DNA from: a virus
Lineage: Duplodnaviria > Heunggongvirae > Uroviricota > Caudoviricetes
Direction: 5' to 3' (one strand)
DNA: 25,852 nucleotides
Virus record (IMG/VR): IMGVR_UViG_2778261249_000012
Coordinates: 1-25,852 of that record
Under the pieces are notes generated by a model. The model did not search any database, was not told where the DNA came from, and saw only the letters and a list, made by a program, of their open reading frames with translations. Numbering within the stretch: the first letter of the stretch is position 1; every line of letters starts with the position of its first letter. Positions 1-23,354 of the stretch are shown piece by piece. The position numbers were made by a program, and so were the translations under genes.

Positions 1-1167
1 TCAGGCCTTATGGTGGAAATAATCACTCAGGCGGGAAAACATGCCGCCTTCCCCGACAGATTCCAGGGTAACCAGCGGCCAGTGCGCCACCTGTTTATCA
101 CGGTCGTAAAGTTCAATTTCCCCTACCCGCTGATGGGCGCTAATTGGCGCGGTGAGCTCTTTACCATCAAGGGTATATTTGGCTTTGATATGTGGAATTT
201 CGGCTTTCGGTAGCACCATCCAGAACTCTTGTTCCGTTCCCAGGTCGATATTTTCTTTATCGCCATACCAGATGCGTTCCGTTCCGACCTTTTTCCCACG
301 GTGCAAAATTTGCACCGTAGTAAAGTTTTGTTGCCCCCAACGCAGTAATTTTCTTGCCTCTTCCTCACGACCTTTTGCACTGTCAGCCCCCATTACCACT
401 GCAATGAGACGACGCTGCCCATCTACAGCCGAAGCAATGAGATTAAACCCGGCACCAGAAGTATGACCCGTTTTCAGGCCGTCAACATTCATGGTTTTAT
501 CCCACAACAACCCGTTACGGTTTTGCTGGGTGATACCGTTCCAGGTGAGATTTTTCTCACTGTACATATGATAAAACTCGGGCTCGCCGTGGATGATAGC
601 GCGAGAAAGCACAGCTAAATCATAAGCCGAGCTATGCTGGCCAGGTGCATCCAGACCATGCACTGTTTCAAAATGCGTATCATTGAGATGCAGCTTCTCG
701 GCATAGTTGTTCATCATTTCAACAAACTGCCGTTGCCCACCGGCAATATAGTCAGCCAGAGCAACACAAGCGTCATTTCCGGAATCCACAATTAAACCAC
801 GGCTTAAATCACGTACCGATACGCGATCGCCCTCTTTCAAAAACATCAGTGAAGAACCGACAAACACCGGATTATCTTTCGCCCACGCATCGCGCCCCAC
901 GGTGACAATATCGTCTGGCGTAATGCGATGACTATCGATAGCGCGATCCACGACATAACCCGTCATCAGCTTTGTCAGGCTGGCGGGATTGCGCTGTTGA
1001 TGCTCATTACCCGCGGTGAGGATCTGACCGGTGGTGTAATCCATCAGTACCCAGGACCCGGCATGAATCTGTGGAGGCTGAGGTGAAAAAGGAATGTTTT
1101 CCGCCGCAAAACCAGACGATAAGTTAAAAACGAACAAAGAAGCAGCAATAATAAGACGGCGTTTCAA
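1..1167 (-). CDS. dacD: D-alanyl-D-alanine carboxypeptidase DacD (PBP6b), host gene, complete
   Basis: Translation matches E. coli DacD along its length (signal peptide then SLTKLMT active-site region). The six-frame ORF starts two codons upstream at a TTG; I place the start at the TTG encoding MKRRLII (1167), giving 388 aa. Stop at 1..3. Confidence 0.9.
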   Translation of the reverse strand: MKRRLIIAASLFVFNLSSGFAAENIPFSPQPPQIHAGSWVLMDYTTGQILTAGNEHQQRNPASLTKLMTGYVVDRAIDSHRITPDDIVTVGRDAWAKDNPVFVGSSLMFLKEGDRVSVRDLSRGLIVDSGNDACVALADYIAGGQRQFVEMMNNYAEKLHLNDTHFETVHGLDAPGQHSSAYDLAVLSRAIIHGEPEFYHMYSEKNLTWNGITQQNRNGLLWDKTMNVDGLKTGHTSGAGFNLIASAVDGQRRLIAVVMGADSAKGREEEARKLLRWGQQNFTTVQILHRGKKVGTERIWYGDKENIDLGTEQEFWMVLPKAEIPHIKAKYTLDGKELTAPISAHQRVGEIELYDRDKQVAHWPLVTLESVGEGGMFSRLSDYFHHKA

Positions 1168-4941: not shown

Positions 4942-4973
4942 GTTGGTTTTTCTCCACGGATTTACTGACAACC

Positions 4974-5005
4974 GAAGCCCTGACTGTTCCCGCAGTTGGG
5001 GCTTC
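4974..5005. promoter_or_regulatory. arc-ant intercistronic stem-loop; candidate site of a sar-like antisense RNA or terminator
   Basis: GAAGCCCTGACTG / CAGTTGGGGCTTC imperfect inverted repeat (~13 bp arms, 2 mismatches) in the 68-bp spacer between the arc stop (5010) and ant start (4941). In P22 this spacer encodes the sar antisense RNA that pairs with the ant RBS. Confidence 0.35.
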
Positions 5006-5009
5006 AACT

Positions 5010-20202: not shown

Positions 20203-20460
20203 CTACTTCGCTTTTGCTTCCGCTCGCTTACGCCGGCGCTCTTCTTTCCTCTCGGCTTTTGCCATGTCCATGAATGCCTGCATGATCGAGTTCCGCATCA
20301 TGTAGCTAACAAAGTGATGATTGACACAGCCGTTGAGGCGCAGCTGCTCGCCAAACTCATCCACCGAGGCCAATGCTTCCATCATGCCCTTCTCACCTTT
20401 CATGAACTCTGAGAAGTCACGCCCCGCTCTGGAGGCGCATTCAATGACACGATCACTCAT
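20203..20460 (-). CDS. hypothetical protein (85 aa) with a basic KR-rich C-terminal tail
   Basis: ATG start overlaps the upstream KilA-N gene stop (ATGA). C-terminus KAERKEERRRKRAEAKAK. Confidence 0.5.
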   Translation of the reverse strand: MSDRVIECASRAGRDFSEFMKGEKGMMEALASVDEFGEQLRLNGCVNHHFVSYMMRNSIMQAFMDMAKAERKEERRRKRAEAKAK

Positions 20461-20954
20461 CCCGGAAGCCCGGGGATCGTAATCTGCAGCTGGTTAGCCA
20501 GGGAGTTAATCTCAGCGACCAACACTGGCTTCGTATAGCGCCATGCCGCCAGCCCTTGTCCGCAGAAGCTCGCCATATCTTTTTTCTGATCAAACTCATG
20601 ACACTTCATATTGAGCTGTGCACTTAAGCTGTTGCGATGCTGAAGTTCTCCGGTGAAGTAGTCATCCAGGACTTTATAGGCTGCATATTTAAATCCGGGG
20701 TTTAGCCATGCTGCATAATCATAAGCAACAAACTTCCCGCCATATGTTCCACCGTGTACACCGCGCTCAGTAAAAACCACAGATTCGTGGTTTTTCTCCA
20801 GCTCGGCTAAGAACTCTTTGGTCTGCTTGTTTCGCAGGTAGTGGTACGGAGATTCAGATTCACTTTTACCACTGGCTTTCCACATATCAGTGAGGCAGAT
20901 CATGCCATCTTCACCGATACGAATTGGTTGATTGAAGAGGGTTAATGATTTCAT
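20457..20954 (-). CDS. KilA-N domain protein
   Basis: 165 aa. The N-terminal half (...MICLTDMWKASGK...EFLAELE...GGTYGGKFVAYDYAAWLNPGFKY...) fits the KilA-N DNA-binding domain pattern. Confidence 0.7.
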   Translation of the reverse strand: MKSLTLFNQPIRIGEDGMICLTDMWKASGKSESESPYHYLRNKQTKEFLAELEKNHESVVFTERGVHGGTYGGKFVAYDYAAWLNPGFKYAAYKVLDDYFTGELQHRNSLSAQLNMKCHEFDQKKDMASFCGQGLAAWRYTKPVLVAEINSLANQLQITIPGLPG

Positions 20955-21158: not shown

Positions 21159-21596
21159 TTATTTCAGGCATTGCGTCCTGATGTACTCCTGCAGGTAGTT
21201 AACCTGCGCGGTTATCTTGTCGATTCCACTTCGGAGACGGTAATAATTGAGTTCAGCATCTGCTGTAAGTCCTGGGCTTTCTCCATCGCCCATGCCGCTG
21301 GCTCCGGTCGTTGACTTTGCACAGGTGGCGGCGACTTGCAGGCGCTTACGCCCAGCAGAAACATCAGCACGGAGACTTTCGATAGTCGCGTTAGCATCAG
21401 CAAGCTCCTTTGTGTATCTGGCGTCGAGTTCTGCTACATCACGTTGACGCTTCTGCATGTCAGCGATGATGTACGTGGCTTTATCGCGCTGCTCTTTGTA
21501 GGCGATTGCATTATCACGGTAATGATTAACAGCCCATGACAGACAGACGATGATGCAGATAACCAGAGCGGAGATAATCGCGGTTACTCTGCTCAT
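21159..21596 (-). CDS. Rz: i-spanin Rz
   Basis: 145 aa. [31 protein letters not shown]... closely resembles lambda Rz (N-terminal transmembrane helix, coiled-coil periplasmic domain). ATGA overlap with the R stop. Confidence 0.9.
21212..21397 (-). CDS. Rz1: o-spanin Rz1 (lipoprotein), embedded in the +1 frame of Rz
   Basis: Start at the ATG at 21397 with AAGGAG RBS at 8-nt spacing. Signal peptide with lipobox LLGVSAC, Pro-rich mature part. The six-frame ORF begins 2 codons upstream at a TTG. Confidence 0.75.
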
Positions 21597-22069
21597 ACCT
21601 CAATCTCTCTGACCGTTCCGCCTGCTTCTTTGAATTTTGCAATCAGGCTGTCAGCCTTATGCTCGAACTGGCCATAACCAGCCCCCGGAAGTGAAGCCCA
21701 GATATTGCTGCAACGGTCGATTGCCTGACGAATATCACCGCGGTCAATCATCGGTAAAGCGCCACGCTCTTTAATCTGTTGCAGTGCCACAGCGTCCTGG
21801 CTTTTGGGAGAGAAGTCTTTCAGGCCAAGCTGCTTACGATAGGCATCCCACCAACGGGAAAGAAGCTGGTAACGTCCGGCTGCTGTTGATTTGAGTTTTG
21901 GGTTTAGCGTGACAAGTTTGCGAGGGTGATCGGAGTAATCAGTGAATAGCTCTCCGCCAACAATGACGTCATAACCATGATTTCTGGTTTTCTGCCGTCC
22001 ATTATCAGTTCCCTCTGACCACGCCAGCATATCGAGGAACGCCTTACGTTGATTATTGATTTCCACCAT
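21593..22069 (-). CDS. R: endolysin R (lambda-type lytic transglycosylase)
   Basis: 158 aa. [53 protein letters not shown]... is essentially identical to lambda R as I recall it. Confidence 0.95.
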
Positions 22070-22376
22070 CTTCTACTCCGGCTTTTTTAGCAGCGAAGCG
22101 TTTGATAAGCGAACCAATCGAGTCAGTACCGATGTAGCCGATGAACACGCTCGTTATATAAGCGAGATTGCTACTTAGTCCGGCGAAGTCGAGAAGGTCA
22201 CGAATGAACCAGGCGATAATGGCGCACATCGTTGCGTCGATTACTGTTTTTGTAAACGCACCGCCATTATATCTGCCGCGAAGGTACGCCATTGCAAACG
22301 CAAGGATTGCCCCGATGCCTTGTTCCTTTGCCGCGAGAATGGCGGCTAACAGGTCATGTTTTTCTGGCATCTTCAT
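22053..22376 (-). CDS. S: holin S (lambda class I holin/antiholin, dual-start)
   Basis: 107 aa. [64 protein letters not shown]... is essentially identical to lambda S, including the Met1/Met3 dual-start arrangement (ATG at 22376 and 22370). Confidence 0.95.
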
Positions 22377-22495
22377 GTCTTACCCCCAATAAGGGGATTT
22401 GCTCTATTTAATTAGGAATATGGTCGGTTACTGATAGAACAAATCCAGGCTACTGTGTTTAGTAATCAGATTTGTTCGTGACCGATATGCACGGG

Positions 22496-22531
22496 CAAAA
22501 CGGCAGGAGGTTGTTATGGCAACCTCATGCC
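22496..22531 (-). terminator. conserved stem-loop plus T-tract in the S leader (terminator-like)
   Basis: On the minus strand: GGCATGAGGTTG-CCATAA-CAACCTCCTGCC-GTTTTG, a 12-bp stem with one mismatch. The surrounding ~240 bp down to the S start is nearly identical to the lambda sequence upstream of S. Confidence 0.5.
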
Positions 22532-22618
22532 ACCCGCTTTCACGAAGGTCATGCGTAGAATGCCGCAGCGTAACTATCACTGATGAATTCAGGATAGCCA
22601 GTGGCTACGGCTCAGTTA

Positions 22619-22694
22619 TGGTGCTGGTTAACGGACTTGAACCGCTACCCATTCGCTTACAAGGCGACTGCTCTACCATTGGAGCTAAACCAGC
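22619..22694 (-). tRNA. tRNA-Thr (anticodon UGU), phage-encoded, in the late leader
   Basis: Hand-folded 76-nt cloverleaf on the minus strand: acceptor GCTGGTT/AACCAGC (7 of 7 bp), D-arm GCTC-CAATGGTA-GAGC, anticodon arm GTCGC-CTTGTAA-GCGAA (U33, anticodon TGT, A37), 5-nt variable loop, T-arm AGCGG-TTCAAGT-CCGTT, discriminator A, encoded CCA. Confidence 0.75.
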
Positions 22695-22699
22695 ATATT

Positions 22700-22774
22700 T
22701 GGCGGGACAGCGTGGACTCGAACCACGATAAGAAGGTTAACAGCCTTCCGTAATGACCTTTATACGACTGACCC
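22700..22774 (-). tRNA. tRNA-Asn-like (anticodon GUU), possibly slightly degenerate
   Basis: 75-nt cloverleaf on the minus strand: acceptor GGGTCAG/CTGTCCC (6 of 7 bp, T-T mismatch at 4:69), weak D-stem (3 bp plus a mismatch) with GG in the loop, anticodon arm GAAGG-CTGTTAA-CCTTC (U33, GTT, A37), T-arm CGTGG-TTCGAGT-CCACG, encoded CCA. Anticodon and T loops are the same as in E. coli tRNA-Asn. Confidence 0.55.
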
Positions 22775-22775
22775 A

Positions 22776-22865
22776 AATAAAAAAAGCCACCGTTGCAACT
22801 TAAGAGTCACTAACGGCAGCTTATGCCAATAGTGTTGCTCATTTGCTCAATGATGTCAACACGTT
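22776..22865 (-). promoter_or_regulatory. candidate late promoter PR' and Q-utilisation region
   Basis: Immediately downstream of the Q stop on the minus strand there is a consensus -35 hexamer TTGACA (complement of 22854..22859). I could not place a convincing -10, so this assignment rests on position (between Q and the late leader) and that one element. Confidence 0.35.
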
Positions 22866-23354
22866 CTATGCTACATGTTTAATTTTCTCTACACGTTTCC
22901 GATTTTTAAACGCACTATCCAGAACCGGGTAAATCATAAACAACGAGGCATTAAGGATTTCGTCAACTTCCCGTCGACAGGTTGCGAGCGATGGTTTTTG
23001 AATGCGCCCGCCGCCCCGGCATAACATCTTGCGAGGTCTTGCGACGCGATGATAGTAAGATGCAATGGCGTGCTTGGAAGATCCATGGGCGTAGTAGCTG
23101 AGGAGGATGCCAAAGGCTTTCTTGTCAATGTACATGACGGAATCGACGACCTGAGAAATCAACATTCCATCATCATCATTGCACATTGGCCTTGTCATAA
23201 CTCTTCCCGGCTCTACGCTCTCCATGAACTTCGCTATTACGCTGCTCATGCGCTTTTCAAGACGACCTGAATAAACCCATGCGCCCCACAGTTCAAGCCA
23301 GCCATTCAGCCACTCCTGCTGTTCTTTGGTGAGGTTTAGTTCTCTTATGCCCAT
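22866..23354 (-). CDS. late-gene antiterminator Q, non-lambda (phage 21/82-like) type
   Basis: 162 aa. Position immediately upstream of the late leader and S. The N-terminal motif LELWGAWVYSG resembles the ERWGAW motif of E. coli prophage QuuD/YbcQ-type Q proteins. No similarity to lambda Q. Confidence 0.7.
   Translation of the reverse strand: MGIRELNLTKEQQEWLNGWLELWGAWVYSGRLEKRMSSVIAKFMESVEPGRVMTRPMCNDDDGMLISQVVDSVMYIDKKAFGILLSYYAHGSSKHAIASYYHRVARPRKMLCRGGGRIQKPSLATCRREVDEILNASLFMIYPVLDSAFKNRKRVEKIKHVA

Follow-up and report, generated by a model that had tools for sequence, protein, structure and literature searches.

Between the late antiterminator gene Q and the holin gene S, a 25,852-nt stretch of Caudoviricetes DNA (the whole stretch analysed, here called the window) contains two adjacent sequences that fold as tRNA cloverleaves. 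The locus raises three questions: whether these are intact tRNA genes, whether their position upstream of a lambda-like lysis region is unusual, and what they would do for the phage. An earlier note, made by reading the letters without database searches, had called the pair Thr-UGU and Asn-GUU-like, suspected that the second was partly degenerate, and regarded the arrangement as unexpected. The window comes from a P22-like phage or prophage of Escherichia coli, with virion genes most similar to those of CUS-3, phiv205-1, Kapi1, and HK620, and a P22-type sar antisense RNA was identified in it with Rfam.

Structure, context, and conservation of the tRNA pair

Exactly two tRNA genes were identified in the 25.8-kb window by ARAGORN, which called them Thr(tgt) and Asn(gtt) and placed both on the minus strand (Table 1). 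Both matched the Rfam tRNA model (RF00005), with scores of 61.5 bits for tRNA-Thr (E = 2.8e-11) and 55.3 bits for tRNA-Asn (E = 1.4e-9). These scores are about twice the gathering score of 29, and both matches are far beyond chance. The earlier note had proposed running tRNA finders on the region; ARAGORN and Rfam agree to the base with the minus-strand pair, encoded CCA ends, and 5-bp gap that it had described.

Table 1. Positions of the tRNA genes and neighboring late-region features in the window.
Feature	Position	Strand	Basis and remarks
Lambda-type holin S, 107 aa	22053-22376	(-)	Pfam Phage_holin_3_1, E = 2.4e-30; first late gene 3' of the tRNAs
Shared junction segment AACTGAGCCGTAGCCACTG...	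22557-22617	(-)	Alignment; common to lambda, phage 21, and Sf6
tRNA-Thr(UGU)	22619-22694	(-)	76 nt, CCA encoded; ARAGORN, Rfam, covariation; taken to be 'tRNA-Thr21'
Spacer AAUAU (DNA: AATAT), 5 nt	22695-22699	(-)	Direct sequence reading; gap between tRNA-Asn and tRNA-Thr
tRNA-Asn(GUU)	22700-22774	(-)	75 nt, CCA encoded; ARAGORN, Rfam, covariation
tR' intrinsic terminator (predicted)	22775-22822	(-)	RNA fold; counterpart of annotated phage 21 and Sf6 terminators
tR' U-tract UUUUUUUAUUU	22775-22785	(-)	Sequence
tR' hairpin	22784-22822	(-)	RNA fold
pR' transcription start (putative)	near 22824	(-)	Transferred from OL657228
Late promoter pR' and Q-binding element (putative)	22824-22859	(-)	Near-identity to annotated phage 21 OL657228
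QBE ATTGAGCA/AATGAGCA (two Q-binding elements)	22836-22851	(-)	Transferred from OL657228
pR' -35 TTGACA	22854-22859	(-)	Transferred from phage 21 record OL657228
Q antiterminator gene, phage 21 type, 162 aa	22866-23354	(-)	Pfam Phage_antitermQ, E = 8e-25

In the tRNA-Asn, U4·U69 is an acceptor-stem mismatch, the D-stem consists of 3 bp plus U13·U22, the discriminator is G73, and the anticodon arm reads GAAGG-CUGUUAA-CCUUC. The T-T acceptor mismatch and weak D-stem reported in the earlier note are therefore present, and so are all core nucleotides (U8, A14, G18-G19, U33, a purine at 37, and a UUCRA T-loop). The tRNA-Thr, previously described as canonical, is a genuine tRNA but not a fully canonical one. 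Its anticodon stem is shortened by G27·A43, a mismatch at the upper end; the tRNA also has a U28-A42 pair and G39, and position 14 in the D-loop is C instead of A. Variants of the Thr gene have U or G at this position, and a nucleotide other than A is conserved across the Thr21-type sequences. The identity elements for AsnRS (G34, U35, U36, and G73) and ThrRS (G1-C72, C2-G71, G35, and U36) are all present in the respective tRNAs.

The surroundings of the pair are those of a late operon head. Pfam Phage_antitermQ upstream and Phage_holin_3_1 downstream confirm the placement between Q and S, and an Rz spanin gene is also found downstream. A scan of positions 22300-23000 for consensus promoters and terminators gave no match; its rules miss a hairpin with a loop as long as that of tR' and a -10 element as far from consensus as that of pR'. 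Because the scan is blind to both, phage 21 annotation and RNA folding were used in its place, and pR' is a putative assignment based on homology to a characterized promoter. The predicted folding energy of the tR' hairpin is -20.2 kcal/mol (z = -3.78), and none of 200 shuffled sequences folds equally well. The U-tract of this terminator has its last base at 22775, immediately followed by G1 of tRNA-Asn, which supports the position within the Q-dependent late leader that the earlier note had assigned to the pair. No separate tRNA promoter was seen in the scan of 22300-23000, nor any room for one. Because the tRNAs directly follow tR' and show no promoter of their own, they should be made only when Q-modified polymerase reads through the terminator.

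Conservation was assessed in 120 viral-contig loci collected with a pattern for the Asn gene, which yielded 24 distinct Asn and 23 distinct Thr sequences. The pattern fixed Asn positions 10-40, and the invariance of the Asn D-arm is partly a product of this construction. Both partners had changed in 11 of 21 Asn pairs (with positions 10-40 fixed by the pattern) and in 7 of 21 Thr pairs. For neither tRNA was a covariation score as high as the observed one obtained in 500 shuffles, and controls with slid partners scored far lower in both cases. The U4·U69 position is unpaired in 21 of 23 Asn variants, and the adjacent pairs 5-68, 6-67, and 7-66 show compensatory change; G73 is nearly invariant. 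Among the Thr variants, G1-C72 and C2-G71 are invariant (21 of 21), pairs 3-70, 5-68, and 6-67 covary, and G27·A43 is unpaired in all 19 sequences of the Thr21 type. The Asn D-stem (GUAU/UUAC with U13·U22) is that of the functional host glyT, and the body of the tRNA is closer to host glyT (52/75 identical) than to host asnT (44/76).

These patterns bear on whether one or both genes, the mismatched tRNA-Asn especially, are decaying, non-functional remnants that travel with the Q module. The U4·U69 mismatch and weak D-stem would fit decay, as would chimeric and truncated copies among the metagenomic variants and the second gene of ST64T/L-type phages, which has been remodeled to a 4-nt anticodon loop and is rejected by ARAGORN. 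A Salmonella phage of that type nevertheless carries a tRNA-Asn 100% identical to that of the window. Both window tRNAs are likewise 100% identical to annotated genes of phage 21 and Sf6, with zero substitutions, while the flanking 600 nt are only ~89% identical to Sf6. The abundant compensatory changes effectively refute decay; the mismatches are themselves conserved, the D-stem is shared with host glyT, and the Rfam scores are well above threshold. We consider decay extremely improbable. To judge from the aligned variants, the tRNA-Asn is not degenerate and its apparent defects are conserved features, contrary to the suspicion raised in the earlier note.

Relatives of the cassette and comparison with lambda

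By sequence comparison, the Asn/Thr pair is already known as a cassette of the phage 21-type late regulatory module. Phage 21 (OL657228) shares 727 of 737 nt with the window from the start of Q through tRNA-Thr, with no mismatch within the tRNAs and with the same order and spacing of Q21, pR', QBE, tR', tRNA-Asn, and tRNA-Thr. Its record cites Guo, Kainz and Roberts 1991 for the phage 21 late region. The sole difference within the tRNA block is in the spacer, which reads AACAU in phage 21 and Sf6 and AAUAU in the window. Past the tRNAs, the similarity to phage 21 extends for another ~60 nt; from there phage 21 leads into its own lysis cassette, which encodes the S21 pinholin and a SAR endolysin, and the window switches to lambda-type S/R/Rz sequence. 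The P22-like virion genes of the window are a further difference from phage 21.

The full architecture is matched by Sf6 (AF547987), which has a Q21-like gene, tR', tRNA-Asn, tRNA-Thr, the same junction, lambda-like S/R/Rz genes, and a P22-like genome. Over the Q gene and promoter region, Sf6 is only ~89% identical to the window, a difference of mosaic partners within the same kind of arrangement, and the Sf6 annotation describes its tRNAs as 'similar to phage 21.' The same cassette is annotated in SfI, BTP1, SPN9CC, Kapi1, and P22-like prophages, and the block was found in 369 of 5426 complete E. coli genomes (~7%). It has also been remarked on in the literature. The SfI paper describes tandem tRNA genes downstream of gene Q and lists them for Sf6, ST64T, PS3, and p21 as well, and the papers on phages L and epsilon34 note the tRNA pair in P22-like phages and prophages. 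The view that tRNAs are not expected upstream of a lambda-like S gene therefore does not hold, given Sf6 and the many P22-like phages and prophages with the same arrangement. For this window the annotation is settled: both genes are real, intact, predicted to be expressed late, and part of a documented mobile module.

Lambda-like sequence restarts at 22617, 2 nt past the CCA of tRNA-Thr, in agreement with the earlier reading that it resumes immediately after the Thr 3' end. Identity to lambda is 90-100% from this position down to the S start codon. The switch from the phage 21-like module to the lambda-like S leader falls inside the shared junction segment, where the match to phage 21 ends at ~22557. 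The tRNA block occupies 157 nt in the window, and the corresponding place in lambda holds 162 unrelated nt. Alignments of these two segments were no better than those of shuffled sequences (62 of 500 shuffles scored as high globally and 191 of 500 locally), and lambda 44.7-45.2 kb gave no tRNA-like Rfam match even at E ≤ 10. The earlier note had suggested aligning the Q-S interval with lambda and had left the choice between insertion and replacement; the alignment shows a same-sized replacement of lambda sequence and not an insertion. Degenerate Asn/Thr relics in the lambda slot were also considered and were rejected on the lack of an Rfam match and the shuffle-level alignment. A tRNA-shaped element of another kind was recognized in that lambda segment by way of intermediates (see below).

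Stx phages of the 933W type, which the earlier note had mentioned, carry ileZ-argN-argO downstream of Q and pR', in the position of the window pair at the head of the Q-dependent late transcript. Unlike the window, these genes have Ile and Arg rare-codon anticodons and are followed by the stx genes.

Codon supply and tRNA-cleaving defenses

We consider it likely that the pair comprises two functional, late-expressed tRNAs, a phage 21-type cassette joined to lambda-type lysis genes in a P22-like prophage, whose main value would be the replacement of host tRNAs targeted by nucleases. Transcripts from pR' would halt at tR' unless Q modifies RNA polymerase; with Q, transcription would continue into tRNA-Asn and then tRNA-Thr. 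Host RNase P and 3' processing enzymes would excise the tRNAs from the late transcript, a step that the authors of the phage L paper describe as undemonstrated. AsnRS and ThrRS, whose identity elements are present, would charge them, and the tRNAs would supply ACA, AAC, and AAU decoding during the late protein burst. Their main selective value would probably be as stand-ins for host tRNA-ThrU and tRNA-Asn destroyed by anticodon-stem nucleases that resident P2/P4-type elements carry (P2 Old and, in part, PARIS AriB). The anticodon-stem changes of the phage tRNAs would make them poor substrates for these nucleases; for tRNA-Asn, we infer the anti-nuclease role. Feeding ACA-rich late genes would be a compatible secondary benefit.

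Codon usage, which the earlier note had proposed to compare with that of the host, does favor a contribution from decoding. ACA accounts for 31% of Thr codons in the late genes (17.5 per thousand) and 10% in 42 annotated K-12 CDS (5.4 per thousand), an enrichment with an odds ratio of 3.9 (p = 4e-17). Lambda and P22, both without the tRNAs, use ACA for 11% and 22% of Thr codons. A similar ACA bias (17.3 vs 7.1) is reported in the SfI paper, and in the phage L paper AAC accounts for 24 of the 25 Asn codons of the capsid gene. The over-use of ACA here and its lower use in tRNA-free lambda and P22 keep codon supply a live contributor. As the whole explanation, with tRNAs that only boost ACA (and AAC/AAU) decoding and have no anti-defense role, codon supplementation seems unlikely. 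Enrichment of Asn codons is modest (odds ratio 1.34), and the SfI paper leaves the Asn tRNA unexplained. In a set of 52 viral contigs whose terminases are essentially identical, the Asn-Thr pair is present in 19 and tRNAs are lacking in ~33, and ACA as a fraction of late-gene Thr codons is equal in carriers (0.255) and cassette-free relatives (0.250). Phages with the same ACA-rich genes can thus do with or without the cassette, and this facultative occurrence fits accessory counter-defense cargo. Codon supply alone also leaves unexplained the conserved anticodon-stem features (G27·A43, U28-A42, and G39/C39) and the resistance to P2 Old and rescue reported for what is probably the identical tRNA-Thr (PMC12445682).

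According to Govande et al. (NAR 2025, PMC12445682), P2 Old kills because it cuts host tRNA-ThrU in its anticodon stem, and phage tRNA-Thr(UGU) species rescue this toxicity because they resist cleavage and decode ACA. The phage 21 tRNA-Thr, 'tRNA-Thr21,' was among those named and tested; it protects, and it resists cleavage in vitro. Its described features are a shorter anticodon stem and C28U/G42A. In the same study, ThrU is cut faster than the other tRNAs compared, Asn(GUU), Lys(UUU), and Val(UAC). The tRNA-Thr of the window likewise carries UGU as its anticodon, its anticodon stem is shortened, and its CNG motif is altered. We infer that it is the tested Thr21, since the phage 21 record holds a single tRNA-Thr and this gene shows the described C28U/G42A and short stem. 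Its motif at 28-30/40-42 is UCG/CGA, compared with CUG/CAG in the host, and is conserved in all 19 Thr21-type variants. The protection by Thr21 was partial and came from plasmid expression, whereas the window gene sits in its native late operon beside tRNA-Asn.

A second candidate nuclease is AriB of PARIS, which targets Lys(UUU), Thr(UGU), and Asn(GUU) within U36-A-A-U39-C40-A41, between C40 and A41, with U39 being essential. The corresponding sites are UAAGCG in the window tRNA-Thr and UAACCU in tRNA-Asn, compared with UAAUCA and UAAUCC in the host tRNAs, so that U39 of the host is replaced by G39 and C39, respectively. U39 is absent from every phage Thr(UGU) and Asn(GUU) compared (T5, N4, Cyrano, and Klebsiella phage 2b). 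The argument from U39 is weak for any single tRNA, because a divergent tRNA would mostly lose U39 by chance. The anti-PARIS set of T5 has the same Thr and Asn anticodons, and position 39 is likewise substituted (T5 Thr UAAGCA). The T5 tRNAs are not close homologs of those in the window, and T5 differs in being virulent, with more than 20 tRNAs under their own promoters. Overcoming B185 PARIS requires tRNA-Lys(UUU). Unlike the T5-type set, the 25.8-kb window contains no tRNA-Lys(UUU) by ARAGORN, and the cassette alone could therefore not defeat B185 PARIS.

For tRNA-Asn, the window sequence lacks both CNG motifs of host asnT. In about half of the distinct natural Asn variants, however, C28-G42 restores a paired CAG/CUG (CNG), and loss of the motif is therefore not a family-wide trait. 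Late, Q-dependent expression may also follow the triggering of a nuclease and come too late. HepS was considered as another relevant nuclease and set aside; its first target is Thr(GGU), with Thr(UGU) secondary, and the paper that describes it (PMC13043305) draws no link to phage-borne tRNAs.

With counter-defense as the preferred reading, a routine tRNA annotation becomes connected to recent work on tRNA-cleaving defenses. A lambdoid or P22-like prophage present in ~7% of complete E. coli genomes would open its late operon with replacements for two tRNAs targeted by P2 Old and PARIS. What remains novel is the possible role of tRNA-Asn and the tRNA-shaped occupants of the lambda-type slot.

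Other occupants of the slot

The slot bounded by the tR' U-tract and the AACTGAGCC junction is modular and has several kinds of occupant. Asn-Thr is the arrangement in 91 of 118 loci, and the others are Asn-Phe(GAA)-Thr-Arg(UCU) with or without Gly(UCC), Asn-Gly(UCC), Asn alone, and chimeric genes. A strict linkage of the cassette to Q21 was rejected, as Q-lambda-like genes, too, are found together with the cassette and each type of Q is also found without it.

In relatives without tRNAs, the slot is filled by elements of 86-219 nt with a 7-bp closing helix, which takes the forms TGTGCTG/CAGCACA, TGTGGTG/CGCCACA, TGTGGTG/CACCACA, and TGTGATG/CATCACA. These elements are tRNA-shaped and, with the exception of the lambda type, have hairpins at the D and T positions that both covary, as does the closing helix. 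The tail of every element ends in CCA exactly at the AACTGAGCC junction. One type scores 29.4 bits against the Rfam tRNA model, just at threshold, its anticodon arm being replaced by 74 nt; the remaining types matched no Rfam family. On the tRNA-less slots, ARAGORN gave inconsistent calls when scoring was relaxed and introns were allowed, and these calls were disregarded.

This constancy of shape would fit a role in RNA processing or structure, in which the tRNA shapes would act mainly as RNase P and 3'-end processing signals that cut the terminator-bearing leader off the late mRNA or stabilize that mRNA, and decoding would be incidental. The slot always holds a tRNA or a tRNA-shaped RNA with CCA at the junction, and it is filled even where the element has no anticodon arm, with helices that covary. 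A pure signal, however, would not need the anticodon loops, stems, and identity elements of the Asn and Thr genes, which are conserved like the rest, and Thr21 decodes ACA in vivo (PMC12445682). We regard processing as the main function of the pair as quite improbable.

A broader reading, which we offer only tentatively and think somewhat less probable than its opposite, concerns the slot as a whole. It would be a dedicated 'tRNA slot' of lambdoid late operons, exchangeable independently of its surroundings, with cargo that could track the tRNA-cleaving defenses met by the phage. The anticodon-less RNAs of lambda-type phages, lambda 44859-44944 among them, would be functional and tRNA-derived, for example processing signals or nuclease decoys. 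The tRNA-Asn would be a nuclease-resistant stand-in, with host tRNA-Asn as a secondary target of both P2 Old and PARIS AriB, and its conserved oddities (U4·U69, C39, and the glyT-like body) would be adaptive and not signs of decay.

The tRNA-shaped occupants of the corresponding slot in lambda may merit separate attention. The lambda element itself (44859-44944) keeps only the closing helix, and its internal hairpins differ. The elements of the tRNA-less slots may be functional tRNA-derived RNAs or relics.

Resemblance of the phage tRNA-Asn body to host tRNA-Gly

The window tRNA-Asn(GUU) was aligned with host tRNAs from Escherichia coli K-12. Identity was higher with glyT, the host tRNA-Gly(UCC), than with the host tRNA-Asn (52/75 and 44/76 positions, respectively). 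The phage gene also shares with glyT an unusual D-stem, GUAU/UUAC with U13·U22. This resemblance of the body, D-stem included, suggests that the phage tRNA-Asn was derived from a Gly-type tRNA by switching of its anticodon and identity.

Variable tRNA content of the late-leader slot

The tRNA cargo directly 3′ of tRNA-Asn homologues varies among the viral contigs compared (L011–L130). Most loci (91 of 118) have Asn>Thr. The alternatives are a single Asn gene, Asn>Gly(UCC), and a longer array, Asn>Phe(GAA)>Thr>Arg(UCU), that in some cases also contains Gly(UCC). In some Thr genes of these contigs, the 3′ half and the anticodon arm resemble host thrU; other genes are Asn/Gly chimeras whose two parts meet at the T-loop.

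The Thr-position gene is remodelled in phages of the ST64T/L type, among them Salmonella phage Salfasec13b, ST160, ST-29, and phage L. The acceptor, D, and T arms of the phage 21 tRNA-Thr(UGU) are retained, and the anticodon arm has a 4-nt loop closed by a different stem, CCUUC/GAAGG. This gene, named tRNA-Leu(UAA) in the phage L paper, scores 42.1 bits in Rfam and was rejected as a tRNA by ARAGORN.

Unrelated virulent coliphages whose tRNA sets are very small, namely N4 (Asn-Ser-Thr) and Cyrano (Asn-Thr-Ser), likewise combine Asn(GUU) with Thr(UGU). As in the window pair, the anticodon stems of these tRNAs lack U39, the base needed by the PARIS nuclease AriB.

tRNA-shaped elements in phages without tRNA genes

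Where lambdoid phages lack tRNA genes, the slot, which extends from the tR′ U-tract to the AACTGAGCC junction, is occupied by elements of 86–219 nt. A 7-bp acceptor-like closing helix is common to these elements, hairpins in the D and T positions are present in every type except that of lambda, and the last three bases of the tail, at the junction, are CCA. Compensatory changes were found in all three helices (closing helix, D-position hairpin, and T-position hairpin). The L143-type element scores 29.4 bits against the Rfam tRNA model, with the anticodon arm replaced by 74 nt; an Rfam search with the other types returned no match to any family.

Coordinates of the tRNA genes, tRNA-shaped elements, and other features
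Feature	Location	Strand	Rfam match
tRNA-Asn(GUU)	window 22700–22774	−	
glyT, host tRNA-Gly(UCC)	L004 (K-12) 674–748		
Slot element, lambda type	NC_001416 44859–44944 (= L003 1060–1145)		
Slot element, L143 type	L143 6310–6436		
Further slot elements	L150, L210, L215, L253, L328		
Remodelled Thr-position gene	L007 (Salfasec13b) 781–849		
N4 tRNA set	L009 437–686		
Cyrano tRNA set	L008 573–820		
P22 sar antisense RNA, full length	window 4942–5009	+	RF00262, 95.6 bits
KilA-N + ORF11CD3 protein, 165 aa	window 20457–20954	−	
158-aa ORF at the position of lambda R endolysin	window 21593–22069	−	
STnc100 copies	L323 609–1287		RF02076, up to 138.7 bits

Other features of the prophage and a relative

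The sar match marks a P22-type immI (ant) region in the window prophage. The KilA-N/ORF11CD3 gene is inserted between the Rz spanin and small terminase genes; this site, where the lysis cassette ends, is a typical moron position. The ORF at the R endolysin position had no Pfam match at E ≤ 0.001, and the remaining lysis proteins were matched clearly. The sRNA STnc100, for which the window has no Rfam match, is present as two to three tandem copies in one relative, a few hundred bases downstream of the late-leader slot.
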